From: Selaginella moellendorffii
Taxonomy: Eukaryota; Plantae; Lycopodiophyta
Assembly (NCBI RefSeq): GCF_000143415.4
Contig: NW_003314268.1
Location: forward strand, 2,000,494 to 2,064,493
Reading direction: 5' to 3'
Length of the DNA stretch: 64,000 nt
Under the pieces are notes generated by a model that was not told where the DNA came from, did no database searches, and saw only the letters and a list, made by a program, of their open reading frames with translations. Within the stretch, counting starts at the first letter, position 1; each line of letters opens with the position of its first letter. Both the position numbers and the translations under genes were made by a program. This document shows, one piece after another, positions 2,948 through 61,439 of this stretch.

Positions 2948-4659
2948 CCCCCTGTCCTGGAATCAGAATATTATGCCCCGTCCCGGCATTTGGCACGACC
3001 CTAAAACGCCATAACTAACTGCCTGTAAGGGATTCCACGAACAGCCATTTGAGCTCGGTCATGTCCTTCACGTTGTAATGCGCATTGAAATGGTTTCCTG
3101 GGCGAAGAACTGGCTCGGGAGATATCTGCTGGAAATCTGTGAGTTTCTTCCGGAACAATTGAAACATCCCGGTTTGTCTTGCGATTTCCTCAAGATTTCC
3201 CTCGGCAGCAGCAGCATTTTTGGCGTCGGTCACGCGGCACTGGAAGATTCCGGTTTCCGGCAGGATTTGCGATTAGATCCTATGAAACAGTGAATTTTGT
3301 AAACTCTAGCAGCGAAATGAGACGAAAATGGTTACCACCATGACTTGATTCGCAGGAAGACTCCACTTTGAGCAGAGAGAGAGGTCACCGCGTCCTCACT
3401 GCAACAAAGTTTTTTCATCGTTTTCTATCATCAAACCAAAAAAATCTAGTCCATCTTCGGTGTTCTTGACACCTTGGTAGTTGCTCCAGGCTCCAAACAA
3501 TGGAAACCAGGAACGGGCATACCAGCTGCTAAAAACCAAAAGAGCTCTTACTCGAGGCGAAGAAAAGAGAACAAAAAATTCTTGCACTCGTGATTTAGTA
3601 ATGGCATCGACCCTCGCACAGCTTCAAACTTGTTGTCGGAAGATCTCGATGGCACGGCAAAATTCTCATCGCCAGCTTCCACGCCAAATCGTCCCTGCTG
3701 CTCCCTTAACCCGCTGCTCCACTCATTACTCCAATCCCGATCCCGGGCCCTGCCACGGTCCCCGCCACTTCCGAGGTGCTCGATCTCGCGCTCACATTTT
3801 TAAATTTTCGAATGGGTATAAAACTCTTTTTAGGTGCAATCCAAACGATTGAAATTGTTAATTGTATCATATTTATTTATTTCCCTATTTGTGAGTTTTT
3901 TAGGTTTTATCTATATAATTTACATGTATCATATTTTTTTAACTTATTTTCTTTTATATTTGTTTTATGGGTTTTTACTTTTTATCCATCTAAAAGTTGT
4001 AGTGGAAATTTTTAAAAATTACTTTAGTGATTATAAGCTACCTATCAATGAAAATATATTTAAGGTAATCTTTTTTTTTCCCTCTATATTTGTAATAATG
4101 CAGCATAAAACATTAAAGTTAAGTAAAAAGTAAAGTTAACTAATGATGGATTAAAATCAATTGCTATTTATAGAGCAAAATAGATGAAGTTACCTACAAA
4201 TAATATAAAATAAAAAGAAGCAATAATAAAGATTTATAATTGATTTTTTTTAATGTTTTTTGTTTATGTTTAAAATATGATTCTAAAATAGCTGTGTATT
4301 CATATTAAGTTGTGTAATAGAAAATTAATGTAAGGACACTAAAACGTTGTTATTATTGTAAATTATGCCAATATTGCAAAGATTTATATGATTAAAAATT
4401 TCAATAGAGAAACTTACCAAGAATATTTGTAAGAAAAATGAAAAATAAAGTTAATTATGAATAGCCATTAAATTTTAGATTAAATTTTTTATATACTCTT
4501 AAATGTTACAAGAATAAATAATGAGTTTTAGTTAGAAATCTTTGGTGGTTTTTGAAAATAAAAAACTTTATACATACTTATCGTTTCACTTCTTTTTCAC
4601 CACCATACTCAATTTTTGATATGATATTTGGATTGTCAAACATGGATAATAAATCCATA

Positions 4660-6066
4660 TTTTAGACTCTCCATGGCATCACGGTTGCTAGTGGCAACAC
4701 CCTCGAACCCCCACTTGATTCTCCACTCCCAACTGGCATAACTAACTTTGGTTATGCCCTTCGATTCCTATGGTTCGGTTCTATCCCTTTACTTCTTGCT
4801 TTTGGCTTTACACCTTTCCTTTGGTCATACTCTTCCAGACTAGGAGGATAGCTTTGCACTTTCTATCATGCCTTAGCAAGTATTCTTAGGAATGAACCTA
4901 CCTGATAGCCTAGGGAGTGGTTCCTCAATTCAGGTATGCTCACCCTATAATCCCACACATCAGGATTACGTTGTTGCTTACGGGCCTTTACATGCCCATC
5001 ACTAGCCTTGCCAAAATTCCATTTTTGGCTTTGTCCAATTCGAGTAGACAGTCTTCTCCTGTCTCCGCCACCTTTGGACATTTAGATAACACTTTCTATC
5101 CATCATTCGCTAGGGACTTAGTCCCTTGGGCCTTATTTATTACCCTCGCAACATCAAACACCACCTCCTGGTGTTCTAGAGTGTTCAGGTGTCCCAATGA
5201 TGGCTTCCTTGACAATGAGTATTTCCTTTTATGACATTGACTTACTATATCACAACATAAGTAACTCATCCCCCGTAAGGGTATGTCCAACTTCCCTATG
5301 CCATTAAGAAGGCTTGGGTAGCTACCTTCTACCCATTTAACCAATTATTTTGCATCTCTTGCTTAGTTGCCTCATAGTTGTCAAGTCCTACAACTCATTG
5401 CTGGTGCTTCCACACCTCCATCATTATCTGGGTCACCACACTTCAACTGCATGCTCTGCCGCTTAGGCTATGCCATTCCCATTTCCATTAGGATTCCTTT
5501 GGCAAGGGGTTCTCATGAACCCACCAACATAGCCTCAAGGTATCACACGTTGGCACATTTGGTGTCTCCACACCATCGGCTCCACGAGCCTACCTCTATG
5601 ACACTTCTTCTTTGTGTCTAAGTCTTTGCCAAGACCAATACTGCTCTTTCTCATGCTAACCATCTGTTAGCACTACACCATAGAGGTTACACATAACTTT
5701 GTGTCAAAGTTGTTTTATTTTTGGGAACACCTTTCCCACGACTTTAGCATGGCATATTTTGCCATCGATGAGATACCCTCTGTTCTCATCCTTGGATCCT
5801 ATGATCCCCCCCCCATCTTTCGTGGGGTACCACACACCTCAGTCCAAATGCTTCCATCAGTCCTTTTAGGACTATTCCTTGACTCTACTTGAGTCATCTA
5901 GCAGTTTTGGACTTGGTTAATCCACAAACCCGTAAGGTCCCACTTGTGAGGCACTAGCTCACTGGAATACACTTCCTGCATTCTTGTCCTGCTCAGAAGG
6001 ACTATTTTCACAAGTGTTACTCTGACACTTGTTTTGTTCTCTGGGGCAACTTCTGCCCCTTAGGAC
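4660..6066 (-). mobile_element. Degenerate retroelement-derived sequence, probably the distal internal part of the older host element
   Basis: Composition changes sharply from the AT-rich flank, and there is no intact ORF. A decayed chromodomain-like K*LVKWVEGSYP lies near 5350-5310 on the minus strand. Boundaries are approximate. Confidence 0.4.
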
Positions 6067-6071
6067 TACTT

Positions 6072-7231
6072 TGTAAGGAACCGACTCCCCGAGATGTCGT
6101 AGGCTAAAGGATCCCCAAAAGCTTGACCGAAATGACAAAGAGTTCATCGGATGGGACCAAGTCGAGGATCGAGTCCAAGACCGACTCTAGGACCGAGTTC
6201 GAGATAGGGTCCGGAATCGAGTCCAAGACCGACTCGGGGACCGAGTTCGAGTCCGAGTTCGAGACCGAGTTCGAGACCGAGTTCGAGACGGAGTCCGAGA
6301 TCCGAAATCGGGTCCGAGACCGAGTCCGAGGTCGAGTCCGAGGTCGGATCCGAGATCGGGTCCGAGATCGAGTCCGAGATCGAGTCCGAAACCAAATCCG
6401 AAGTCGGATCCGAAATCGGGTCTGAGATCGAGCCAGAGACTAAGTCCAAATACTAATACGGGTCAAGGGGTGAAAGCCCAAAGCGTGCGTCTCCCAGGGG
6501 GGGGGGGGCTGCAGGGGGTTCCAAAAGTATAGTAGGGATAGTGAGGTCCAGGAACCAGTTTTGAAGGGACTCTCCAGTTGGGCTTCCAAACCGACTTGAG
6601 GTTGAGACTGGGACCGAGGGGCCTTGGGTAGGAGTGAGCATGGACTTGGCTGGTGCCGGAGGGGCCATCCAAGGAAGTGCTCAAGAGCAGCTCCCACTCC
6701 CGAAAGGGAAACCGACTGCGGTGCTCCCGGCTCAGGTGGAGTGGTGCCCCACTTGAGTACCTTGTGGCTCATTGGTCCTTGCCCTTCCGGGGGCTTGGGC
6801 CTTCCCTTCGGGATGGAAGAGGGGGGGTAGAGGTACCCATACTGGGCCGTTAGGCCACGGTGTTTCGCCCCGACGTCCCGAAGCAAGTGTTGCACCCAAG
6901 GCTTGGGATTTAGAGGGTCCCATGATCAAGTCTTGTTGTACCAAGGGGTGTTAGGAATCTGGAGGCTTGGTGTGCTTGGTTGCTTGTGCCTGCGGGGAGT
7001 GTAGCCGAACCTTAAGTCCAGTCTAACCCGGGGAGGGGGATTGGGAGAGATTTGGGAATCCGTAGATGGATGGCTAACACTCCGTTGCTCGTGCAGTAAG
7101 TAGCTGAAACCAAGTAGGAGCTAGTACATAGGCGAGAACCTTGGCGAGGGAACTTAGCACAAGCCAAGGCAGAGTTGGTTGGATAGGCGAGGTAAGCTGG
7201 TAAATTGGAAAGGAAAAATTTGTGGCTTACA
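6072..7231 (+). repeat. 5' LTR (1160 bp)
   Basis: Starts TGTAAG and ends CTTACA. Near-identical to 12465-13625: roughly a dozen substitutions, mostly transitions, plus one extra G, counted by eye. Confidence 0.96.
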
Positions 7232-7234
7232 ATT

Positions 7235-7247
7235 TGGTATCGGAGCC
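7235..7247 (+). promoter_or_regulatory. Primer-binding site (tRNA-iMet type)
   Basis: TGGTATCGGAGCC lies 3 nt after the LTR. It differs from the plant iMet PBS consensus TGGTATCAGAGC by one G:U-compatible change. Confidence 0.9.
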
Positions 7248-7290
7248 TCTTTCTCAGTTCTAGCGAAGGATAGAGGCGGATTGCTGGGAG

Positions 7291-10200
7291 ATGGCAAGGG
7301 CAGGATGTAAGCGAACCCAGGCAGAGACGGAACCTCCTCAAGAGCTGGAGCCTCCGGTCGAAGAGGAGGCGATGGATGAGGAATCCTTGCATGAGGAGGA
7401 CTCCAGTGAGGCAACTTCCAAACAGGAGTCTGGTGGTGAGGTTCGGTCATCCAAGGCTCGATTGGATGTTCTAGAAGGACAATTGGCACAGACCAATGCC
7501 TTGCTAGAGACTCTCGTACGCAAGCTAAAGCATGACGAGAAGCGGAAGAAAAAGCGAAAGACTGCGGATGCTGGCAGCGCAGAAGGTGCGGACCCTTCGG
7601 CAGGGACTGAGGCAAAACTAGACAAGGTCGAATAGACCGAAGTGGAATCAGTCCCTCAGGCAGTTCCCAAGTACAAACCAAAGCCCCCACCCGTCTTCAA
7701 GGGAGTGAACGACTATAAGGTGGTGGAGGATTGGTTTTACAATATGGAGGACTACTTCCGAGCGTTGCGATTACCAAGCTCGGAGAAGGTCCCATGTGCA
7801 AAACCATACTTGGCGGATAATGCCAAGTCTTGGTGGAGAATGACAGAGGCCAACGAAGGACCGGTGGCCACTTGGGAAATGATGAAGGTGAGGATCCGTG
7901 CAACTTACGTTCCTCCGAATGCTACTCTGCATCTAAGGGACAAGCTGAGTAGGCTGAAGCAGACCGGAACCATTCAGGAGTATGTGAATGGGTTTATGGC
8001 AAAGAGGATACTTGTCATGGACATGGGGGATATGGATGCGTTCCATGCCTTCATATCAGGTTTGCAAACCTGGGCTTGCGGCGAAGTAATGCGGTGGAAC
8101 CCGACCAACTACAAAGAAGCGTTGGATGCGGCCATCAAGGTGCATTTCAACGATAACCTGCGAAAGGGGAACACGACGGGGTCGGGATCCACGTTTAGCA
8201 AAGGGGCCAAACCAAGGGGAACGTTTAGCAGAGGGAAATTCAAGAAGAGTTTCTCTAAGAATGAGTCCTCGGGGTTCCGGAAAGGCAGATCCGGTGGGCA
8301 GCGAGCGAGTACGTGGGGGATTCAGGCGAAAAGAGACAAACCCACGGATAAGAAGGTCAAGTCATATAGCAGCGTGGGAAACAACGTATGCTACAACTGC
8401 GGTGAAGCGGGACACTTCTCGAGGGAATGTCCCTACCCGAAGAAGGCCAGAGCCAATATGGCCATCAAGTCGGGTGAAGTCCAAAATGAGGTATATGATC
8501 CAGTCCCTAACTCAAAGTTACTCATTACACGAGCAACTTTGGTAGAGAGTCGTTCGCGACATCTACTAGCCCTCCGAGGGAAGCTCGGAGGTAGATTTGT
8601 TAAGATCCTTATTGACATGGGTGCTTCGGATAATTTTGTGGCTGCAGACATAGTCCGGCAAGCCGGACTAACGGTGCAGCAGCTAGGCGAACCAAGGACT
8701 ATAGAGTTTGTTCAAGGTAGCCAAAGCACCGATGAGGTACTTCGACAAGCGAGAGTCGAAGTGGGGACTTGGAAGGTGGACATGGATTTCACCGTGTTGG
8801 ACATGGCGGGATTTGACATGATCTTCGGAATGGACTGGTTCAATCGATTCGTGGTAGCCCTGCATGGACAAGGTAGAAACCTTGTGGTACTGGCGAATGC
8901 CCAAGGAAGAAGATCTAGGGTGGAGGCCCAAGATCTAAAGGTAGGGCAAAGCAAGGCCAAAGATTCCTGCTTAAACCTGGTGTCCACGAGAGGACAACTC
9001 ACTAAAGGAACTAAGGCGGCCTTTTTGTGCTTACTCTCGGTGAAGAGTGACAAAAAGACAGGAATGGAAGAAGTACCTTTAGTGATCCAGCGGGTGTTGG
9101 ACTAATTCCAGGATACCATGCCGGAGGAGCTACCGGTGGGGCTACCCCCAGCACGACCGATAGAACATAAGATTGAGCTAGTCGAGGGTGCTGAGGCAGT
9201 GGTTCGTCCCCCTTATCGTTTGAACGAAAAAGAACTCAAGGAGCTCAAGTGCCAACTAGAGGAGTTGGTGGACAAAGGGTATGTTAGGTTGAGCAAGTCG
9301 CCGTATGGGGCGCCGGTGTTATTTGTGAAAAAGAAAGATGGATCTATGCGCATGTGCATAGACTACCGGTTGCTCAACAAGTATACAAAGAAGAACAAGT
9401 ACCCTTTGCCAAGGATTGAGGACTTGTTCGATAGGTTGGGAAAGGCAAAATACTTCTCGAGGATTGACCTAAGGTCAGGATACTACCAGATCAGGGTAGC
9501 TGAGGAAGATGTCGAGAAGATAACCTGTCGAACGAGGTATGGAAGCTTTGAGTTTCTGGTGATGCCCTTTGGGCTGTGCAATGCGCCGGCAACGTTTTCA
9601 CATTGATGAACCATATCTTTGTACCCTATCTGGATCACTTCGTGGTCGTCTATATCGACGACATTCTGATCTATAGCGAGACGCTAGAGGAGCATGCCGA
9701 ACACTTGGCGAAGGTGTTTGAGAAACTAAGGGAACACAAGCTGTATGCTAAAGAGAGCAAATGTGACTTTGCTCAACAAGAGGTAAAGTTTCTCGGGCAT
9801 GTGGTGGGCCAGGACGGGCTCAAGGTGGACCCGGAGAAGGTCCAAGCGATCCAGGAATGGGAGCGACCAGCCAATGTACATGAGTTGAGGGCATTCCTGG
9901 GGCTATGCAACTATTATCGAAAGTTTATCAGACACTATTCAAGAGTAGCCCTGCCCTTAACGGACCAAACAGGAAAAGGGAAGATGGTGTGGACAGCGGA
10001 ATGTGAGGCGGCATTCGTCCACCTCAAAGGGAAGTTGAGGAAGGTTCCTGTATTGGCATTACCAGACTTTGGTAAGGACTTTGAGGTAGAAACGGATGCT
10101 TCGGACTTTGCGTTGGGCGCAGTTTTGAAGCAAGACAACCATCCGGTAGCGTTCTTCTCGAAGAAGCTGGACAAGGCTCAACGGAAGTGGCCTGCCCACG

Positions 10201-12061
10201 AGAAGGAATTGTTTGCGGTGGTCAAGGCGCTCAAGGAGTGGCGACACTACCTTGGGAGACACTTCAAGGTTTACACGGACAATGTGGCAACGAAACACTT
10301 CTTGTCACAGCCCGACCTAAGAGGGAAACAAGGTCGGTGGGCCAATGCCTTGGCTGAGTTTGATTGCGAAATTCTGTACAAGCCTGGGAAGAGCAACATC
10401 GTGGCGGATGCGCTAAGTCGAAAAGCGAGCTTGAGGTTGGCAATATCCAGCGCAACAGCAACCTTCTGGGACGATGTGCGGACAGCATATGAGAACGATG
10501 GTCTAGCACAAGAAGTGTTGCTGAGGAATCTTGAGGCGCGGGAAGCTCACCAGAGAGGTGAGCTGCCAACGGAAGAGAAAACGGGCTATGCGGAACGCAA
10601 CGGACTCATTTATTACAAGCAAATGAGGGTGTATGTTCCAGAAGGGGAACTAAGGAAGGTGGCCTTAGAAGAGTGTCATGACGGACCTCTTGCGGGACAC
10701 GGTGGAGTGCCCAAGACGATGGGCTTACTCAAAAGGAAGTACCATTGGCCAGATATGGCTAAGGACGTCCAAGACTATGTAAAGACATGTCCAACATGTC
10801 AGCAGGTAAAAGCCGTGACTAAGGCTAGTGGGGGCTTGTTGCAAAGCATCCCAATTCCAGATCGCCCGTGGAAATGTCTTACGATGGACTTCATCACGGG
10901 ACTCCCCCCAAGCGAGGGGTTTGATGCGATATTCGTGGTGGTGGACCGATTTTCGAAAATGGCACACTTCATACCCACCACAACGGAGGTGGATGCAGAA
11001 GGTGTGGCAAAGCTGTTCTTCGAACAAGTGGTTCGAGTGCGGGGAAGACCGGAAGAGATCATCTCAGATCGAGATAAGATCTTCACCAGTAGGTTCTGGA
11101 GGACTCTCCTGGAACAGTATTGCACCAAGTTGAAATTCAGCATAGCCTACCACCCACAGACAGGTATGGGGTATTGAGTCAAGTTGTGGGAACTAACACT
11201 TCTTGACAGACGGACAAACGGAAAGGGTGAATAGGTAGCTGGAGGATTATTTGCGATGCTATGTCTCGGGAGACCAGACCGATTGGGTAAGTCATTTGGG
11301 ACTTGCGGAGATGTGTTATAACAACTCACCACATTCGAGTATCGGGGTGAGTCCATGGGAAATCATCAATGGGCGAGCTATTGAAGGTCCTGTGGAACTC
11401 GGCGTGGCCGAGTATCATGGAGAGTTGCCCGCAGTGGAGGCATTCACGGCGGAAAGACTCAGCATTTGGAACCTAGTGAGGGATTCCTTGGAACGGGCTC
11501 AACAAAGGCAAACCAAATACGCGAACCAGAAGCGTCGGGATGTAGAGTTCCAAGCTGGGGAGAAGGTGTGGCTGAACACCAAGAACCTCAAACTACCAAG
11601 TGGGATCAGCTGAAAGTTGACCCAAAGGTAAAGATGCATGTATTTCTGTAAATGAATTGATCTTGAGTTCCTTAAGCAGGTTCGCGGGGCCTTACGAGAT
11701 TGAGGCACGAATCGGTAAAGTGGCTTACCGACTCCGACTTCCTCGAGAGATGGGGAAGATGCACCCAGTGTTCCACGTGAACTTACTCAAGCCATACTTT
11801 GAGGATCCGCTTCGCAAGGACCAAGTGAGACCTTTACCTGAGGTTATCCAAGGGGAAGAGGGATACGAAGTCGAGGCCATCCTCAATGCGCGCAAGAGCA
11901 AGCGACAAGGACGCGAGGTGAGAGAGTTCCATGTGAAGTGGAGAGGATTTCCACACTGCGAAGCAACATGGGAACCGGAGGAGAACCTAGCGAACGCTCG
12001 AGATCTAGTGGAGGAATTTCTGCAAGGCAGAACTCTATGTACTTATGCAAAATTCAATTAA
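7291..12061 (+). pseudogene. Gag-Pol polyprotein (Gag, zinc knuckle, protease, RT, RNase H, integrase, chromodomain), disrupted in this copy
   Basis: Motifs: CYNCGEAGHFSREC; LIDMGASDNF; YIDDILI; ETDASDFALG..ADALSR; CHD..H..CPTCQ; MDF/SDRD/TER; GPY; FHVKWRGFPHCEATWEPEENL. In-frame stops at 7633, 9103, 11236 and 11611, a 1-nt frameshift near 9600, and two GT-AG introns (11164-11209, 11628-11679). Confidence 0.93.
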
Positions 12062-12451
12062 AAATATCAATTTGCAAAGTTGAGCAAGTGGCATATGTTG
12101 GGACCCGAAGGCGCGCCAAAGGTAAGCTAATTAGCATGGGTTGGATAGGTCGACCAGGCGTAGGGCACTATGCCCGACTCCCCGCGGGGATGTCGAATCC
12201 GTAGACATATTCTACGGAGGTTGGGTTCGAGTCCCAACCCCCTAGTAAAGCAAGGCTGGGTTCAAGTCCCGACCCCATACTAGGGCGTGGTGAGGTGAGG
12301 AGTATAGGGACACCTATATTCCGTTGTCATGGGCTCTTGGCCGGGGAGGCTAACTTAGGCACACCGCTAAGTGGGGGGATGCCCCCGGAGACATGGTCAA
12401 CAAGTCGTAAGATAAAACGAGACGTTTGATGTGGGCATCGAACTTCTTCTA

Positions 12452-12464
12452 TGGGTGGTGGAGT
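12452..12464 (+). promoter_or_regulatory. Polypurine-tract-like element
   Basis: G-rich TGGGTGGTGGAGT immediately before the 3' LTR. Confidence 0.65.
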
Positions 12465-13625
12465 TGTAAGGAACCGACTCCCCGAGATGTCGTAGGCTAA
12501 AGGATCCCCAAAAGCTTGACCGAAATGACAAAGAGTTCATCGGATGGGACCAAGTCGAGGATCAAGTCCAAGACCGACTCTAGGACCGAGTTCGAGATAG
12601 GGTCCGGAATCGAGTCCAAGACCGACTCGGGGACCGAGTTCGAGTCCGAGTTCGAGACCGAGTTCGAGACCGAGTTCAAGACGGAGTCCGAGATCCGAAA
12701 TCGGGTCTGAGACCGAGTCCGAGGTCGAGTCCGAGGTCGGATCCGAGATCGGGTCCGAGATCGAGTCCGAGATCGAGTCCGAAACCAAATCCGAAGTCGG
12801 ATCCGAAATCGGGTCCGAGATCGAGCCAGAGACTAAGTCCAAATACTAATACGGGTCAAGGGGTGAAAGCCCAAAGCGTGCGTCTCCCAGGGGGGGGGGG
12901 GGCTGCAGGGGGTTCCAAAAGTATAGTAGGGATAGTGAGGTCCAGGAACCAGTTTTGAAGGGACTCTCCAGTTGGGCTTCCAAACCGACTTGAGGTTGAG
13001 ACTGGGACCGAGGGGCCTTGGGTAGGAGTGAGCATGGACTTGGCTGGTGCCGGAGGGGCCATCCAAGGAAGTGCTCAAGAGCAGCTCCCACTCCCGAAAG
13101 GGAAACCGACTGCGGTGCTCCCGGCTCAGGTGGAGTGGTGCCCCACTTGAGTACCTTGTGGCTCATTGGTCCTCACCCTTTCGGGGGCTTGGGCCTTCCC
13201 TTCGGGATGGAAGAGGGGGGGTAGAGGTACCCATACTGGGCCGTTAGGCCACGGTGTTTCGCCCCGACGTCCCGAAGCAAGTGCTGCACCCAAGGCTTGG
13301 GATTTAGAGGGTCCCATGATCAAGTCTTGTAGTACCAAGGGGTGTTAGGAATCTGGAGGCTTGGTGTGCTTGGCTGCTTGTGCCTGCGGGGAGTGTAGCC
13401 AAACCTTAAGTCCAGTCTAACCCGGGGAGGGGGATTGGGAGAGATTTGGGAATCCGTAGATGGATGGCTAACACTCCGTTGCTCGTGCAGTAAGTAGCTA
13501 AAACCAAGTAGGAGCTAGTACATAGGCGAGAACCTTGGCGAGGGAACTTAGCACAAGCCAAGGCAGAGTTGGTTGGATAGGCGAGGTAAGCTGGCAAATT
13601 GGAAAGGAAAAATTTGTGGCTTACA
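12465..13625 (+). repeat. 3' LTR (1161 bp)
   Basis: Copy of the 5' LTR, followed by TSD TACTT. Confidence 0.96.
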
Positions 13626-13630
13626 TACTT

Positions 13631-16325
13631 GTCCATGTGATGAGAATACCAACTCATCTCTAAGTACACCCCCCAACTCCTTGGGTTGTTCCAACATTTA
13701 TTAAAGGTAGCCCCGGCTACCATTTCAAGGACTTGAGTCCTCTTCCGTATTTGACCTCCCACGGTCATTACTTCTGGTCTCACATTCATGAGCACCAACC
13801 TCAATTATATGAGGATAATCTTGTGACTCCTTTATTGCTTTGGAATCTTTATCTTTCCCGTGATCCCAACTATAATTGTTTATCACAACTACATTAGCCC
13901 GTTTGCTGCGTCAAACGCTCATTTGGATCACATCCTCAGCTCTCTGAGGAAACCTTATACTGTTCCCAAGATCCCAAAGTCGTTCCATTATTGGCCCTTT
14001 TCTATCCACCATATTGTGCCCAAGTTCACGCATGAACTTGAGTGGAGGGCCATGTCCTCTCGACATGCTACTCTTCAAGGATAAGGCCACTCCTAGGACC
14101 TTCCGATGCCAACATCAATGGTGATATACTTGAGCGCCAATAAAAGTCGGACTAAGGAACAGCTTTGATGCCAAATTGTAAGTGACTAATTTTTCCATTC
14201 TACTTTAGTCACTTAACCACACCTTTGACCACTTGGAGGAGTCTCATTCATAACATCCTGAAGTCCAATTCAGGACTTGGGACTTGCTAGCCCCGAGGAT
14301 GGCATGTATGCCACTCATCCCTTGCACTTAGTCCAAATGCTCCACATATTCGGTCCCAAGATCGACACCCAAAGGTACCACTGACATATTGGCCCGTTAC
14401 GCTAAGGCCATGCTCATTCACCTTTGCCGCACTAGTGGTCCAATACCACTTGCATCACAATCCCGTCTCTCCAAGACTGGGCCAACCATCCGTGAGTGGT
14501 CATCCAGATCCACTCCTTAGCATCCTTATGATGCTTACCGACAAGGGGAACAGCCTTCCCCAATATCCCTTTATCAGTCCCCACTAGGTCCCTTTTTGCC
14601 CTTGGCCGTGTTTGCCAACACTGCCACTGGATCGAGGCCCACAGGCCTGACCACTAAGTCCCATGGTCCTCTGGGACTTCCTCACCACATGACCGTATCC
14701 TTGGCCACCACACCAAAGGACTGCTCCTTTTCCTTTCCATAGTCTGGGACTTGGGGACAACACTTCAGAACACCATGGCTTTACGCGAGCCACCTAGGTA
14801 CTCTCCCCGCCTTCCGCATTTGGGTGCTCTAGCCATGGGCTTAGAGTGAGGTTCTATTGAGCCATGCTTGGTATCCAAGTAAGTAGTGCCACCCACACTT
14901 GGACTGGGAGCATCGGCCAGTCGATCTCCCGGGGGAACTAGAGCCGGCTCTTGAACACTTCACCAAGCTACCCCGTTTGTCGGTCCGTATTCACTCTAAT
15001 CTTGGACTTCCTAGTGGTCAGTTCATCACCCAACACTGGGTCTGGCCTTCCTGGGCCAAACTGGCCTTTCCTGGCCAAACTGGCTCCACTGCAGTCCTCC
15101 CCCTCACTATACTTTTAACCCCCCAGGGTCTGGGAGACGAATGCTTTGGGCTTTCACCCTCTCAGACTCGGACTCGGCCTCGGACTCGGACTCGGACTCG
15201 GACTCGGACTCGGGCTCGGTCTCGGCCTCTGCCTCGGTCTCGGTCTCGGTCCCGGTCTCGGTCTCGGTCTCGGTCCCGGTCTCAGTCTCGACCTCGGACT
15301 CCATCTCAGGTCCTTCTCGGACTCCATCTCGGATTCCATCTCAGGTCCATCTCGGACTCCATCTCGGACTCTGTCTCGGACTCCATCTCGGACTCCATCT
15401 CAGACTCCGTCTCGGTTCATCTCGGACTCCACTTCAGACTCCATCTCGGACTCCACTTCGGACTCCATCTCGGACTCCACTTCGGACTCCATCTCGGACT
15501 CCACCTCGGACTCCACCTCAGACTCCATCTTGGACTCCGTCTCGGTCCATCTCGGACTCCATCTCGGACTCCACCTCGGACTCCACCTCGGACTCCATCT
15601 CGGACTCCAACTCTAGTCCATCTCGGACACTTCCACGTGTCATGTGTTGGTCCTTTTGGGTCCCTTTTTGGAGTCTCACTTATTGCTTGCTTCGTGCTTG
15701 TTCCTCGAGCACTTTGTCTGGGAGACGAACGCTTTGGGCTTTCACCCTCTCAGACTCGGACTCGGCCTCGGACTCGGACTCGGACTCGGACTTGGGCTCG
15801 GTCTCGGCCTCCGCCTCAGTCTCGGTCTCGGTCCCGGTCTCGGTCTCGACCTCGGACTCCATCTCAGGTCCTTCTCGGACTCCATCTCGGATTCCATCTC
15901 GGGTCCATCTCAGACTCCATCTCGGACTCTGTCTCGGACTCCATCTCGAACTCCATCTCGGACTCCGTCTCGGTTCATCTCGGACTCCATCTCGGACTCC
16001 ACTTCGGACTCCATCTCGGACTCCACTTCGGACTCCATCTTGGACTCCACCTCAGACTCCATCTCGGACTCCGTCTCGGTCCATCTCGGACTCCATCTCA
16101 GACTCCACCTCAGACTCCACTTCAGACTCCATCTCGGACTCCAACTCTGGTCCATCTCAGACTCCATCTCGGACACTTCCACGTGTCATATGTTGGTCCT
16201 TTTGGGTCCCTTTTTAGAGTCTCACTTATTGCTTGCTTCGTGCTTGTTCCTCGAGCACTTTGTTGGGAGTTCCACTCCCGCTCTCGACCTTCCAAGTTGG
16301 AGCTTTTTAGTCCAAATGTGTTACG
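13631..16325 (-). mobile_element. Older related LTR element in the opposite orientation: LTR about 16325-14451, PBS-like TGGTATTGGACC at 14448-14437, decayed internal region
   Basis: Blocks match the reverse complement of the young LTR: GGGAGACG..GCTTTGGGCTTTCACCC at 15132 and 15720, and GGGAGCA..CAGTCG..GCTCTTGA.CACTTC near 14906-14961. It has the same hexamer-type arrays, and its ..TGCA end is followed by a PBS-like motif. Confidence 0.65.
15128..16262. repeat. Tandem duplication (about 588-bp unit) of (CTCGGA)n / (CTCGGACTCCAT)n arrays inside the older LTR
   Basis: Units start GTCTGGGAGACG at 15128 and 15716, and both end ..TTCCTCGAGCACTTTGT. Confidence 0.9.
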
Positions 16326-16420
16326 CTCATTTGGCTTTTGCTTCAGCCACTATCACGTGTCACCATTTCCAGCTCCACTTTGGGGCCTAGGGATTTTGTG
16401 TCTCACATTGGGCTAAAGGA

Positions 16421-16678: not shown

Positions 16679-16920
16679 ATAATATTACCTTCTGGAAAAT
16701 CCAAATTTTTGAGGTTACAGATAATTTGTAATGCCTTAACGTTTTAATTAAATGCATGACATTGTCTTAATGGAGGATATGAGGTCTTAAGTGTACAGTT
16801 AATATATTATATACTATTATTAGATGATTACCATCCACATCACCAAGAAACCTAAATTGCCAAAGCCACACTTAAAAGTACCTCAGACAGATTAAAACCG
16901 TACCGTACCACAGCGAGTTA

Positions 16921-19046
16921 TTAAGTTGTGTAATCAGCATTGATCTTCACATAGTCGTAACTCAAGTCGCAGCCCCACGCAGTGGACCGTCCTTTTCCGC
17001 CACCTGAAACACGGCACCACCTCCGTTGGTCACTCGTCACACAACAGCATCCAGACCGATTGAGATTGTGATGGCAACGACGCCGTGAACTTCTCCAGCC
17101 GCGAGTAAGTAGTCTTTGGCTGCTCCGCTGCATTGCGTCCCTCGGATCAGGTCTGGATAGATACATACAACGGATGACTCACCGGTCAAACTCCAAGGGC
17201 TGCCCCTTCTGCATCAGCACAAAAGTCCCGAGCCGGATTTCCAGCTCCTGAGGGTCGAAGTCAACGCCCGAGTAACCTGCTGCGCATGCTACACGCCCCC
17301 AATTCGGATCCCTTCCATAGACAGCAGCCTAGTTCACACCAACGCTCAAGTGAAAGATAAAAAGAGAAAGTAAAACGCAACCTTGACCAGGGACGATCGA
17401 GCAACTGAACGAGCGACAACAGCTGCAGCATCATCGGAGTGAGCGCCTATGACTTCCACCTACATCAAAGCAGACTGTGAGAAAGGTGCATGCAGCGGAG
17501 CTTACAAACCTCGACAAGACATGTAGCACCTTCCCCATCGGAAGCAATAGACATTGCCAGGCCTTGGAACACCTGTATAGCCATACAAGATACAATGAAT
17601 AGCTTGTCAACACGAACAAAAGGCAGTAACATGCTCACTGCATCCAGTGCGGCTTGGAGTTGCTGTGCATCACGGTCTTGCATATTGTCGAGCAGACGTC
17701 CACGAGAGGCACCGCTGGCTAGTGCTAGGACGGTATCGTTGGTGCTCGTGTCTCCATCCACCTGAGAGTATACGCTCCTTATCTCACTGTTGAAAAGAAT
17801 TGCATACCGTGATCTGGTTGAAGCTCCGGCCAACAGCAGTTTTGACCAGATCTTGCCACACATCCGATGCAACGTGAGCATCGCATGTTACAACCTGCGA
17901 ATAAACTCAAGATTCATTCTTGATAATCAAATAAGGATTACACTAAGCATCGTCGCCATGTTTGGATGGATCATCCCAGATCCTTTCGCCATGCCACCGA
18001 TCTTAACGGTCGTTCCTCCCACCTACAGGACTAGCTTTAGTAAGGCACTCATGCATCTGAAGCCTCACCTCAGTCTCGATGGCAACACTCTTGGTAACAA
18101 GATCGGTGGTGGTGATCGCAGTTGCAGCAGCATCACCACTTCCATGGTCCGATGAGAAGAAAAGAAAACAAAAGAGAAAACGTGCACACCTGTCAGCAGT
18201 GTAAGAAAGTGCTCCCACCAGCCGAGGAAGAGACGCTAATAGAGCATCCTAGAAATAATCGGTCAAATGATTATGAATTTCCAAAGCAGACCATGCGGCC
18301 TTACCTTCTTGATGCGTTTGCCAATTACACCGGTGGACTGGAGAAGAACACGTTCCGGTTGAGTGCCGAGGAGCTACAGAAACGAATAACTAAAGTCCCG
18401 CGCAGGAGCAAGCGTCGTCTACCTTTGCAACAGCAGTTGCGCAGTCGAGGGCGTCTTGGTAACCTGCATCACCCTGATCAAAGCCGTCAGTGACGCGTGC
18501 ATGCATGGAGAAACGTGCTCACAGTTGCAGCATTCGCTTGACCCGCATTGATAAGAACTGCACGCGCCTGGATACACACCAAAACTTTACCAGTAACAAA
18601 GCGGAGAATCGTGCCAACCTTGGTTGAGGCCGCCAGAATGCGCTTGCAGTACAAGACGGGCGCAGCAGCCACGACGTTTGTTGTGAAGGTTCCTGCGTGT
18701 GCCATGTAAGAAGAAGACACAAAGGGCAAGGAGGAAAAGAAGCGACCCACCGGCACAGACGGCGTCCACATCCGAGACAACCAGGGCGAGGTCTGGTTTG
18801 GTGCCAAGTGCTCTTAGTCCGCCATACAAGCCAGCAGCCCGAAAGCCGCAAGGTCCAGTGACACCGCCTGGAATCTAGAGACTCCCAAGTGCGAGTAAGC
18901 AAACAAGAATAACTTACCTGCGTCCAAGGGCCTCGGGGGAGCCGAATGTGAGCTGCAGGAAGCGCGATCGTCTCCCCGCTGGTAACAACCTCGTTGTGTA
19001 ACGACGACGCCTTGGCACCCATTGTCAGCATTGCTCCCCCCGCCAT
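16921..19046 (-). CDS. argJ: Ornithine acetyltransferase / glutamate N-acetyltransferase ArgJ, plastid, multi-exon
   Basis: Motifs [52 protein letters not shown] and DGEGATCL. C-terminus [19 protein letters not shown]. Confidence 0.96.
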
Positions 19047-19134
19047 TGCTGGCGCTCTGGAATCAGGACGGGGACAAGCACCCTAATCGACAACAGGTAG
19101 AACAAGTAAATTATGTAGCTTGAAAATTTCCTTG

Positions 19135-47733: not shown

Positions 47734-50299
47734 CTATCTCGCACCCGAGAGCTCAATCGCTTCCAAGTTGGAGGAATCTCCCTGAATCATCATCCACTCG
47801 TCCAGCTGCTTGTGGCCAACATCCACCTCTTCTCTTCTCAGCACCTGAACCTTTTGCCACTCTTCCCACCTCTCGGCGAGGCCGTCCCCTTCCAGCATCG
47901 ACACGACCTCCACCATCTTTGGACGGTCGCTGGGAGACGCTTGGGTGCAGAGCAGAGCAATCTGGGTGAGTTTCTCAACTTCGTTTGGCTGGTACGAGTG
48001 CCTCAGCTTGGGATCCACGAGCTCACTCAGTCTACCTTCCTGCTGGAATCTCTTCACCTGCAAGCACCAAAGCGAAAGTTTGGTCCGAGGCCAAGCACCA
48101 TAAATCTTACCCAGTCGAGAAGCATCACGTCGTCATCGTCAAACAGCCTGGCTAGATCGAAAGCCCGCTTCCCCGTTATAAGCTCCAGCATCAAAACTCC
48201 ATATCCAAACACGTCCGTCTTCTCCGACGACTTGCCTGTGGACAGATACTCCGGAGCAATGTGGCCGGGAGTCCCTCGGACGTTGGTGGTGATGTGTGTG
48301 TTCTTGGTGTCAATGAGCTTTGCAAGACCGAAATCGCCCACCACCGCCTGGAAATCTTTGTCCAGTAGAACGTTCGCAGCTTTCACGTCACGGTGAATGA
48401 TCCGGGGGCTACAGTGTACGTGAAGGTAACGGAGACCGTGAGCAGCACCCAGAGCGATTTGCTTCCTCGTTTCCCAATCCAACGTTTTGCTCCCCGTGGT
48501 GTCATCTGTGGACGCAAAGGTTAGCTTCTTCACAGATGGTTGATTTTCAGCTTACGCAAGCGGGAAGCAACGCTCCCGTTGGGCATAAACGGGTAGACTA
48601 AGATCCGCTCCGAAGGAGTGATGCAAAATCCGTCAAGGCGAAGCAGGTTGCGGTGGACTGCCAAGCCGATGATCTCAACTTCAGTCTGAAATGCCTGTTC
48701 TCCTCCAGCTGAAATATTCTGGTCTGTTCTTAGGCGCTTAACGGCAACGAGTTTGCCGTTTTCCAAACTGCCTTTGTACACTTTCCCAAATCCTCCCTGT
48801 CCCAGGACGTTCTTGTCGCTGAAATTGTCTGTTGCAATTTGGAGTTCCCTGAGAGTAAACTTCCTAAGTTGTCCAAAGGTGGCATGAGGATCATTTTCCG
48901 CTGCACAAAAGATAGCCGCGCATCAGATAGCTTACAAAAAAGCAAACAGACGCACCAGCAACGTCAAAAAACACCTCTTTTGGCCCACGGTGCTTTCTCC
49001 ACACAATGACAGCCAGTAAGGGACAGAGCAGTAAAAACAGAGCCCCCGCAGCAATGCCACCAATGATAGCTCCAATGTTAAGCCCTGCAGCGCGTCCAGG
49101 GATTGAAATAGGCAGAAGTTATCCCAAGAACAGACTTGCTTACCACGTCTTCTAGAGCTCGGAAGAATCGACTCCGGGCAAGGCGTTCCTACCTTAGTAC
49201 CACAGAGATCTGGATTCCCTAGCAAGCTGTTGAAAGACATTAGCCGTCATGGAATGACTTCAGAAACGGCATACATCAAACAGGCAAGCATTGTTTGCTC
49301 ACTTGAACTCACTGATCGTCCCTTTGGGTGGGAGTGGTCCACTCAAGTTGTTATACGAGACGTCTCTGCATGAATTCGAATGATCAGGATAACGAACACG
49401 AGAAAATGACATACAGAAACTGCAAGCTGGATATGAGAGTGAGCGTAGAAGGGATGCTTCCGGTCAGGCTGTTGTTGTTTAGAAGCCTGCAAAGCCAAGT
49501 TGCTGTGATTAACAGGAAAAAGAAGAAGAAGAAGAAGAAGAAAGTTCCCAAGGCTTACAAGGTTCTTAAGCTCGTAAGATTGGTGAGCGTTGACGGAATG
49601 CTTCCAGTGAAGTTGTTCGCAGACAAGTCAAGATTCAGTAAACCTTGCAGTGTTCCCAGTTGTGGCGGAAGAGAACCCGAGATCAAATTCCCTTTCATCC
49701 TTCTGAGGAAAAGAGAGCCATTAAAAACAAAACCATATGATCCAAGAGCCAAGTACAGGTTTTGCAGATTGGGCAAATCCGCAAGTGCTGGCGAGAGAGT
49801 CCCCGAGAGGCCTTGCTTCTCCAACATTCTGGACAGGCAAGAAAAAAAGATTATCATCAAAGTCAAAGACACGAGCTAGCACCCACACATAGAAAGAAAA
49901 AAAGAGTTAAAAAGAGGCACACACACACACACGACAATGTTCTATTCTACCAAGAAACCAAGGAAAGAGAGAATGTCTCCAGCGAGCGACGAGCAACCAA
50001 TGCAAATCTCATACACTGTGATGACACGCTGCTGGCTGTCGCAGTCGACATAGAGCCAGCTGCAAGGATTGACGAGGTTTGCATCCCAAGATCTCAACGC
50101 ATTCTTGGGATCCCACAGCTTGCTCTTGAGCTCCGCGAGCGCATTTCCTGACAAAACGTTTAGCCTGATTGCTCCCCAAGGAAGAGAAATCGCGGGGCCA
50201 GGCAAGCGTACCTTCGGCATTGGAGGCCAGAGCTTGGTGGATCCAGAGGAGAGGCAGCGGCAGCAGCAGTGGCAGTAGATGCTCCAATCCAAAGCGCAT
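47734..50299 (-). CDS. LRR-II (SERK/NIK-like) receptor kinase
   Basis: Signal peptide, [15 protein letters not shown] exons, [22 protein letters not shown] and [24 protein letters not shown]. Ends ELSGAR. Confidence 0.93.
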
Positions 50300-58870: not shown

Positions 58871-61439
58871 ATGGAGCAAGCGATGCGGCCGTGGCTCTTG
58901 TTGTTCGTCGCCGCTGGGATCTTCGTCTCGTCAGCCACGGGCAACTCGGAGGGTAAGCAAGGTTCCCCAGCTCCAGATTATCGGTCAGCGTGGTGTCAGG
59001 CTCTGTCTGGATTGTCAGATGGAACTCGAATCGCATGTCATTGCAATCGTGAGAGCGCGGGCACTGACTTGTGTGGTGTTTTGGCTGGCTAGGCGATGCC
59101 CTTCATGTATTTCGGCAGGCGCTGGATGATCCTAGCAACGTCTTGCAAAGCTGGGATCCCACACTGGTCAATCCTTGTACCTGGTTTCACGTAACTTGCA
59201 ACACCCAAGACAACGTTATAAGAGTGTAAGCCGCTCGCTTCCTTCTTTGTATGCTTCTTCTTTACCTCTACACTCCTTTGGCAGGGACTTGGGAAATGCA
59301 TTTCTCTCAGGGCGTTTGGTAGCAGCTCTTGGCAATCTCGAAAATTTACAGTACTTGTAAGTAAATCTAATTCCTCCTATTCTCTATGGTGGAGCTAACT
59401 AGGACCCCCCCTTTTCCATTGTTTCCTTTAACAGGGAGTTGTACAGCAACAACATCACTGGGCCAATCCCAAAGGAGCTGGGCAACTTGACTGAGCTCGT
59501 CAGCCTTGATTTGTACCAAAACAGCTTCACTGGCGATATACCTGACTCACTCGGTAAACTTCATAATCTGAGGTTCCTGTAAGTAATCTATCGTTTCCCT
59601 TCGTTTCGCTTCAACCCTTCTTTACCTCTTTCCAGCCGACTAAATAATAATACACTCGACGGCAAGATCCCCAACTCACTCACCACAATCCCGGGGCTTC
59701 AAGTGCTGTAAGTTGTTCTCTGAGTTGTCTGGGAGGAGGTGTGTCACTTCTCCCTCTTGTCCTTGCAGGGATCTCTCGAATAACAATTTGTCAGGTCCAG
59801 TTCCAACTAATGGCTCCTTTTCGCTGTTCACGCCGATAAGGTACTTTTGGCGGACATTCTTTTTGGCTGTCTCTCCTCATAACTCGTTATCGTACAGTTT
59901 TGGAGGTAATCCGGCATTGTGTGGTGCTGTTGTCAGCCGTCAATGTCCAGGAGGGCCCCCATTGCCACCTCCGACTCCCTACCAGCCACCCTCACCTTTT
60001 GTTGGCAATCAAAATGGTAAGGTGTTAATTGGCTGGAGAGTCGGGTGTTTCAAACAGTCTGAATGGCCTCAGGAAATAATGGGGGATCCTCGAGCACCGG
60101 TGCCATTGCTGGAGGTGTGGCTGCCAGCGCTGCCTTGCTTTTTGCAACTCCAGCTATCGCTTTTGCGTGGTGGAAACGTCGCAGACCGCACGAGGCCTAC
60201 TTCGATGTCCCAGGTAAGAGCTGCTCATACTCGTGCTGAACCTGCTAACGACTTCTGTGACAGCTGAAGAGGATCCCGAAGTTCACCTTGGTCAGTTGAA
60301 GAGATTCTCACTCCGAGAACTTCAGGTCGCAACAGATAACTTCAACAACCGGAACATCCTTGGTCGGGGTGGGTTTGGAAAAGTGTACAAAGGCAGGCTG
60401 GCAGATGGATCTCTGGTAGCTGTTAAAAGATTGAAGGAAGAACGAAGTCCAGGTGGTGAGTTGCAGTTCCAGACTGAAGTCGAGATGATAAGTATGGCTG
60501 TACACAGAAATCTTCTCCGTTTGCGTGGTTTTTGCATGACACCAACGGAAAGACTTCTTGTTTATCCATACATGCCCAACGGAAGCGTTGCTTCCCGGTT
60601 ACGAGGTATGCAAATGGTGGTCATTCTTGTGTCATGGACTATAACGCTGAAAGCGTTGCAGAGAGACTTCCGGGAGATACACCACTGGACTGGCCAACGA
60701 GAAAATGCATAGCTCTAGGTGCGGCGCGTGGTTTGTCATATCTTCACGACCACTGTGATCCCAAAATTATCCATCGCGACGTCAAAGCAGCAAACATCTT
60801 GCTGGATGAGGAATACGAAGCTGTGGTGGGGGACTTTGGCCTGGCCAAGCTCATGGACTACAAAGACACGCACGTCACAACAGCAGTCCGAGGCACGATC
60901 GGCCATATCGCTCCCGAGTACTTATCCACGGGGAAGTCGTCAGAGAAAACGGACGTGTTTGGTTTCGGGATCATGTTACTGGAACTCATCACTGGACAAC
61001 GAGCGTTTGATCTCGCTCGCCTCGCCAACGATGACGACGTCATGCTTCTCGACTGGGTACGTATCTCACCAGTCTGTCTTTCTTGCGATTTAAGCCATAC
61101 TTTGGTCTCAACTCTCTTCAGGTGAAAGGACTGCTAAGAGAGCGAAAGGTGGACCTTTTAGTGGATCCCGACTTGAAAAACGAGTACGATCCCATGGAAG
61201 TCGAGCAGCTCATTCAGGTGGCACTTCTATGCACACAAGGCTCTCCAATGGACAGGCCCAAGATGGCCGAGGTCGTAAGAATGCTCGAAGGCGACGGCCT
61301 GGCGGAGAGATGGGAAGAATGGCAAAAGGTGGAAGTTGTCCGAAGCCAGGAAGTCGAGCTCGTGTCGCATGGAAACTCCGAGTGGATTGTCGACTCCACG
61401 GATAATCTACACGCGGTGGAACTCTCGGGTCCAAGATAG
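58871..61439 (+). CDS. SERK: Somatic embryogenesis receptor kinase (canonical SERK/BAK1 type)
   Basis: [21 protein letters not shown] exons, Pro-rich [32 protein letters not shown] and [18 protein letters not shown]. Ends ELSGPR. Confidence 0.96.

Follow-up and report, generated by a model that had tools for sequence, protein, structure and literature searches.

Layout and identity of the element

The window, that is, the whole stretch of 64,000 nucleotides analysed here, contains a Ty3/gypsy chromovirus on the plus strand in which the domains follow, by Pfam, the order Gag-CCHC-protease-RT-RNase H-integrase-chromodomain, with gag and protease in one frame and with no env. The element carries a leader intron, an alternative intron in protease and two introns in integrase, and it is inserted within the gag remnant of a decayed sister LTR element. 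The features of the locus are as follows, with X1 to X4, X9 and X15 denoting sequencing runs.

6067-6071 and 13626-13630: target-site duplication TACTT, from the sequence
6072-13625, plus strand: whole element, Ty3/gypsy chromovirus, 7,554 bp
6072-7231, plus strand: 5' LTR, 1,160 nt, TG..CA, with 12-nt tandem repeats and a G12 tract at 6497
7192-7257, plus strand: leader intron of 66 nt with GT..AG ends; spliced in contigs of X1 and X2, retained in X3 and X9
7192-7230, plus strand: predicted U5 hairpin, donor GUAAGC paired with GCUUAC at the LTR end
7235-7247, plus strand: primer-binding site (PBS), 13 nt
7291-8490, plus strand: gag exon (Retrotrans_gag, CCHC), by Pfam
8491-8647, plus strand: alternative protease intron, 157 nt; joint in X1 and X3; by Pfam and translations
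8648-11163, plus strand: C-terminal part of protease, RT, RNase H and N-terminal part of integrase, by Pfam and tblastn
11164-11209, plus strand: first integrase intron, 46 nt; joint in X1, X2, X4 and one raw X15 read
11628-11679, plus strand: second integrase intron, 52 nt; joint in X1, X2 and X4
11680-12061, plus strand: last exon with SH3_Tf2 and the chromodomain, stop codon at 12059, by Pfam
12453-12463, plus strand: polypurine tract (PPT), from the sequence
12465-13625, plus strand: 3' LTR, 1,161 nt, repeating the U5 donor at 13586
4600-6066 and 13626-16410, minus strand: sister LTR element, decayed, from the sequence
14152-14217, minus strand: U5-PBS junction of the sister element, GT 14217..AG 14152, 66 nt, with a decayed PBS

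The two LTRs of the main element, whose poly-G tracts are G12 and G13, differ by 13 substitutions and 1 indel over 1,161 columns, and at the plant rates that we assume this divergence places the age of the element at approximately 0.4-0.8 million years. The window copy is defective, with stops at 7633 (in-frame within the gag exon), 9103, 11236 and 11611 and a frameshift near 9600. Its 13-nt PBS is one that we take to be of the initiator-Met tRNA type.

These dimensions resemble those of SM1-Galahad, a Galadriel clade chromovirus of S. moellendorffii, which the accessible text of its description gives as ~7.5 kb long with LTRs over 1 kb, poly-G tracts of 11-25, a PPT and a 13-bp Met PBS (PMC3350952). 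In the same text, the ORFs of SM1-Galahad, rebuilt by the authors from several copies, measure 3,885, 316 and 309 bp (PMC3350952); the equivalent spans in the window element, taken by coordinates and read past the breaks of this copy, are 3,887, 318 and 309 nt. The element is thus likely SM1-Galahad, by a match of dimensions to the published description as opposed to an alignment of sequences. The accessible text publishes the three ORFs as separate and contains neither 'intron' nor 'splic' (PMC3350952), and its supplement gave 0 matches for 'Galahad' or 'intron'. As seen in the window element, the three published ORFs are exons, and annotators risk calling such elements broken where the ORFs are exons. 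Protein searches returned, as the closest proteins, single-ORF gag-pol-chromodomain proteins that are 48-52% identical, with flowering plants among the sources, and found no relative above 56% identity.

Two further features lie downstream in the window. A host gene at 16920-19050 (minus strand), which from its motifs we take to resemble argJ, has ~15 introns of 43-66 nt with several weak donors, and the stretches 48108-48691 and 60467-61059 form an inverted pair that is ~71% complementary and is probably an inverted paralogous gene or an old repeat. The best match of a neighbouring gene is to S. moellendorffii (50%), which makes a Selaginella the likely host.

Splice junctions of the four introns

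The leader intron had been proposed from the sequence, and each of its signals was found where the original prediction had put it. The donor AG|GTAAGC lies in U5 with its GT at 7192-7193, the branch-like CTTAC occupies 7226-7230 with the CA of the LTR end at 7230-7231, and the pyrimidine tract CCTCTTTCTCAG ends at 7257, with the Gag ATG (7291) 33 nt further; both the LTR terminus and the PBS (7235-7247) fall inside the 66-nt interval, as had been described. The putative branch point, A7229, matches the branch-site consensus yUnAy at a distance of 28 nt from the AG, and the acceptor tract has pyrimidines at 9 of 10 positions. There is no upstream ATG inside the intron, and its length is within the range of the neighbouring host-gene introns (66 nt vs 43-66 nt, the latter measured by eye, with a GT..YAG candidate at 14 of 15 donor places). 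By itself the donor motif is unremarkable, since AGGTAAG occurs 15 times over both strands of the 64 kb, and the case therefore rests on transcripts.

We compared 8 of 23 listed sequencing runs with the window. No listed run is on record as RNA and X1-X4 are labelled RNA by guess; X1 and X2 come from one study (P1), X3 from a second and X4 from a third, whereas X15-X17 are raw RNA-seq reads, of which ~12 in 100 were read. The leader is covered by 4 of the 8 runs; X4 and X15-X17 do not cover it, the latter three having zero cover at 7124-7519. The assembled contigs are not molecules, rare forms drop out of them, and reads of the 5' and 3' LTRs merge in them. The spliced contigs derive from a family relative ~93% identical to the window copy and not from the window copy itself, and none of the 40 best-supported of 600 differences from the window falls in the donor, the branch site or the AG.

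The splice 7191^7258 anticipated by the original prediction is used, the exact junction being present in contigs of X1 and X2. In X1 the joint runs from 7189 to 7256 and skips 66 nt, which with the cut moved by +2 is GT..AG and equals 7191^7258 (depth 7.86, 110 letters on the short side); in X2 the joint 7191^7258 has a depth of 8.91 with 255 letters on the short side. The RNA so spliced is without the last 40 nt of U5 and without the entire PBS, as had been foreseen. A transcription start downstream of 7192, which would have spoken against the intron, was not seen: on the upstream side of the donor the spliced contigs extend for 110 and 255+ nt. The alternative acceptor AG that had been suggested at 7263 gave no joint in the contigs, which drop rare forms.

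Taken run by run, X1 has four GT..AG joints, of 66 nt (7191^7258), 157 nt (8490^8648), 46 nt (11163^11210) and 52 nt (11627^11680), and X2 has the 66-, 46- and 52-nt joints, with the 3' part of the 157-nt intron uncovered. The bin depths of X1 and X2 are exactly those predicted for spliced-only contigs, with zero cover inside the leader intron. The 46- and 52-nt joints recur in X4, and in X15 one raw read crosses the 46-nt joint. In X3 the leader (contig 6902-7362) and the 46-nt intron are unspliced and the 157-nt intron is spliced, its joint having 28 letters on the short side; extra depth in X3 suggests that a form retaining the protease intron is present too. X9 has none of the four joints among 371 contigs and has unbroken contigs across both integrase introns (depth 44.6 and 42.6); we read it as DNA because its cover is continuous over all 30 bins and four of its contigs exit the LTR into differing flanks. 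The leader is thus spliced in two of the four covering runs (X1, X2) and unspliced in the other two (X3, X9).

The unspliced leader contig of X3 and the spliced contig of X2 share the differences at 7062, 7067, 7179 and 7329, which are absent from X9. One expressed variant, which dominates X1-X3, is therefore seen both spliced (X2) and unspliced (X3), and splicing, as opposed to a deletion in the genome, accounts for the gap. We regard the leader intron as very probably real; its junction is known from contigs of a single study, in runs guessed to be RNA. Transcription of the expressed copy might start at a host promoter and read through into the element, and the unspliced leader form in X3 could be pre-mRNA. 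Separately, X15-X17 have LTR reads at 6700-7057 whose loose ends fall at positions 6701 and 7057; this LTR fragment of the family is transcribed within the RNA of another locus in the three RNA-seq runs.

The 157-nt intron contains the protease active-site motif; neither this intron nor the U5 hairpin that pairs donor with branch site had been part of the original prediction. By translation, its splicing leads to a stop at the second codon past the acceptor, giving a Gag-only mRNA, whereas its retention lets the reading of Pol continue. The protease-spliced contig of X1 continues over 8646-9410, at least 760 nt past the acceptor, contigs being unable to show RNA ends.

The 46-nt intron splits the HPQT/DGQT motif of integrase and the 52-nt intron lies in the integrase C-terminal region, ahead of the SH3/chromodomain exon. 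In translation neither is a multiple of three and both have stops inside; splicing is therefore obligatory for integrase. When seven single-ORF relatives were compared by tblastn, the alignments broke at both integrase intron sites. A metagenome scan of the 46-nt site in 78 distant loci found no insertion in 76, with 2 that could not be assessed (by eye, allowing 1-nt slips); the downstream motif stands at intron-free spacing in 20 of the 78 and the other 58 gave no pattern match. The pattern scan of viral contigs returned 0 matches. SM2-Galahad is a single ORF of 1,577 aa in the accessible text (PMC3350952) and so has no integrase introns. On these sequence comparisons, the integrase introns are best read as lineage-specific gains. 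Both have terminal direct repeats, of 5 nt (11159-11163/11205-11209) and 4 nt (11626-11629/11678-11681), as expected for gain by insertion or by duplication of a proto-splice site. No significant hairpin was found across the splice sites of either (z -1.04 and +0.83). SM1-Galahad, with integrase introns, and SM2-Galahad, without them, form a natural pair for the study of intron gain.

Past the chromodomain, 12027-12080 is a stretch of 74% AT, and the X1 and X2 contigs end just before it (12008 and 12018); the stretch is a possible internal poly(A) site or a possible GC..AG intron (near 12027-12079). No junction for a fifth intron, either this one or one from a donor at 12122, was present in the runs examined. 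At 12120-12150 a second AG|GTAAGC is followed by GGTTGGATAGG; the same two motifs flank the U5 donor in swapped order, and no junction was seen here.

The U5 hairpin and its relatives

The donor and the LTR end are predicted to pair with each other in a U5 hairpin. This fold scores z -2.20 in the 5' LTR (8 of 200 shuffles as good) and z -3.19 in the 3' LTR (0 of 200), and of 12 folding windows, 11 give it a pair probability of at least 0.81 and the remaining one gives 0.34; when the 91-nt stretch 7180-7270 is folded alone, another structure is preferred (z +0.67).

The sister LTR has a hairpin in the same place, with an 11-bp stem (z -2.73, 2 of 200 shuffles as good), and at least two pairs are, by eye, changed on both sides relative to the main element. 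The two junctions are identical in 49 of 67 columns, against 32/65 and 32/72 in the flanks. Loss of the splice signals among copies had been named as an argument against the intron; they are kept in the sister LTR, where the donor G|GTTAAG is weak. Long tandem arrays of a 12-nt unit and a duplication within the LTR (15617-15717/16163-16263) are further features of the sister LTR.

As a control, we inspected 16 PBS junctions of distant relatives. A G|GT stands 30-55 nt upstream in 5 of the 16, a pyrimidine-rich YAG is found in 3, and both are found in 2. The branch-like (yUnAy) LTR end that is present in the element and its sister occurs in 0 of the 16, and most of them have a predicted stem close to the LTR end, in folds taken without z-scores. 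The hairpin is probably older than the leader intron, and its two arms may have supplied the donor and the branch site. Among distantly related loci, L003, L006 and L007 have, near 2800-2860, a YAG that abuts the gag ATG or lies a short way upstream of it, ~50 nt beyond the LTR end, and no donor-like site; the YAG is lost in L020 and L026.

A possible gate and its counterparts in known systems

Retrotransposition is classically recognised by the loss of introns during passage through RNA, and reporters for it are built on this principle. The high-copy family studied here retains two obligatory introns in integrase: all four introns are kept in the young window copy and in the likely-DNA run X9, and both integrase introns are kept in the published ORF layout of SM1-Galahad. 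The introns must be spliced, yet the RNA that was copied kept them, and some filter consequently bars the Pol mRNA from copying. Plant LTR elements are generally intron-free, with Ogre and EVD as exceptions, in the accessible part of a 2025 review (PMC12786077).

We propose, with a probability of roughly 0.55, that the leader intron is the gate separating mRNA from replicating RNA. Leader-spliced RNA, without the PBS and the U5 end, would serve as mRNA only, and RNA keeping all introns would be the form copied into DNA. In general, RNA lacking these parts cannot prime minus-strand synthesis and offers no template for that attachment end, and in other elements dimerisation and packaging signals lie near the PBS; loss of this region may also weaken dimerisation or packaging. 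Three classes of RNA would follow: one with the leader and protease introns spliced, for Gag; one with the leader and integrase introns spliced and the protease intron retained, for Gag-Pol with whole integrase; and the unspliced genome. A 66-nt intron that excises the primer site would be a compact and testable answer to the sorting of genome RNA from mRNA.

The original prediction had named the absence of the leader junction from integrase-spliced RNA as evidence against it; both integrase-spliced runs that cover the leader have the junction. More broadly, the status of the leader equals that of the 46-nt intron in all three likely-RNA runs covering both (X1 and X2 spliced, X3 kept), an agreement at the level of runs, contigs not being single molecules, that points to a likely gate. 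In X3 the protease intron is spliced while the leader contig is unspliced, and the coupling is therefore not absolute. Against the gate, the U5 end and the PBS are conserved for replication anyway, and the loose layout of GT plus pyrimidine-AG occurs in 2 of the 16 PBS junctions inspected in distant relatives. Nor would losing the PBS in itself suffice if spliced RNA were co-packaged and templates were switched, so that exclusion from packaging or early termination is probably also needed.

Beyond the gate itself, we tentatively sketch a multi-intron chromovirus with splicing-dependent integrase in which the U5 hairpin would act as a switch, a picture that is doubtful as a whole. By masking donor and branch site jointly, the hairpin would let a share of transcripts escape splicing; unfolded RNA would be spliced to become mRNA and folded RNA would be the sole genome. 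The hairpin arms would have given donor and branch site free, and the gate would have licensed intron gain in pol, allowing obligatory introns to settle in integrase.

The main rival reading, conceivable if rather unlikely, is that the leader intron aids expression, through removal of a 5' UTR hairpin, export or removal of a tRNA-fragment target, and that the integrase introns are kept by another filter. The targeting of the PBS by 3'-tRFs, in the accessible part of PMC12853362, agrees with such a role, whereas the leader intron has no upstream ATG to remove. The other filter would be premature polyadenylation of spliced RNA, upstream of the PPT and 3' LTR, or, as in BARE1, a distinct pool of unspliced RNA that is not polyadenylated. 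In X1 and X2 the spliced contigs stop at 12008 and 12018, ahead of the AT stretch and the PPT, while X9 continues; in EVD splicing is coupled to early termination (PMC5580714, accessible part), and the BARE pools are separated by start site and R domain (PMC3735527, accessible part). The hint at early termination consists, however, of two contig ends from one study, in contigs that cannot show RNA ends, and the protease-spliced contig of X1 extends at least 760 nt beyond its acceptor. An early-termination filter would be compatible with the gate.

Improbable, in our view, is that the leader splice is a by-product with no selected role, in which a hairpin ending in CTTACA automatically carries GTAAG on the opposite arm and the host, splicing introns of 45-65 nt, does the rest, perhaps only in read-through transcripts of one copy. 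The stems predicted at the LTR end in most of the 16 relative junctions, the host introns of 43-66 nt with weak donors and the single variant dominant in X1-X3 fit such an origin. They are opposed by the assembled contigs of X1 and X2, in which leader splicing is complete, by the acceptor with 9 of 10 pyrimidines, by the yUnAy LTR end in element and sister and in none of the 16 relatives, and by the identical 66-nt length retained in the sister; the obligatory integrase introns would still require some filter.

It is very unlikely that the donor mainly binds U1 to suppress polyadenylation in the 5' LTR, as in foamy virus, with the splice to 7257 secondary. The donor lies inside the LTR, and in both LTRs, and the foamy virus major splice donor is reportedly the subject of a paper whose title joins U1 with poly(A) suppression. 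That donor is in R (PMC5035957, accessible part). In the window element an efficient acceptor 66 nt away would free U1 fast. Finally, although X1, X2 and X4 are RNA by guess and may contain DNA, the joints almost certainly do not reflect deletions in the genome or a processed DNA copy without introns, given four separate GT..AG gaps with none in X9, a raw RNA-seq read (X15) across the 46-nt junction and the same variants unspliced in X3, and a processed copy would in itself prove splicing.

The gate, as the preferred reading, has partial counterparts in other retroelements. HTLV-1 has a splice donor in R. In foamy virus the donor lies within the 5' LTR and precedes the PBS, so that U5 and PBS are absent from spliced mRNAs, and Pol needs splicing (PMC5035957, accessible part). 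Here, in contrast, the acceptor is just past the PBS and before gag, the intron removes replication signals only, Gag and Pol share one frame, the introns are inside integrase and there is no env; the resemblance to foamy virus leader splicing is one of working and not of membership. BARE likewise has separate RNA pools for translation and replication, formed through two TATA boxes and loss of R and not through splicing of the PBS (PMC3735527, accessible part).

The protease intron is convergent with copia EVD and BARE1. The short-Gag intron of these Ty1/copia elements likewise cuts protease sequence, makes a stop and gives a Gag-only mRNA, but copia Pol needs no splicing, and the window element is a Ty3/gypsy element with integrase after RT-RNase H, an order that is not that of copia; it is not a copia member. 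The accessible part of the EVD study gives no conserved splicing for Ty3/gypsy in Arabidopsis (PMC5580714). Ogre (Ty3/gypsy, Tat clade) also has an intron in the pol region whose removal is required for full Pol and which genomic copies retain, but it is a single intron between protease and RT, and the accessible parts of the sources mention no leader intron that removes the PBS (PMC6317226, PMC12786077). In Penelope-like elements introns survive retrotransposition, among them one in the 5' UTR that spans the boundary between repeat and body, and the accessible text states the reason for their retention as unknown (PMC8557442); these elements have no tRNA priming, integrase or true LTRs, and the mechanism is unrelated.

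Searches of the openly accessible literature found no account of a PBS-excising leader intron or of integrase introns in plant LTR elements. Of the systems compared, the element belongs to none except, likely, SM1-Galahad, with which it shares a long ORF ending in the integrase core and two short downstream ORFs with a group I chromodomain in the last (PMC3350952, accessible text).
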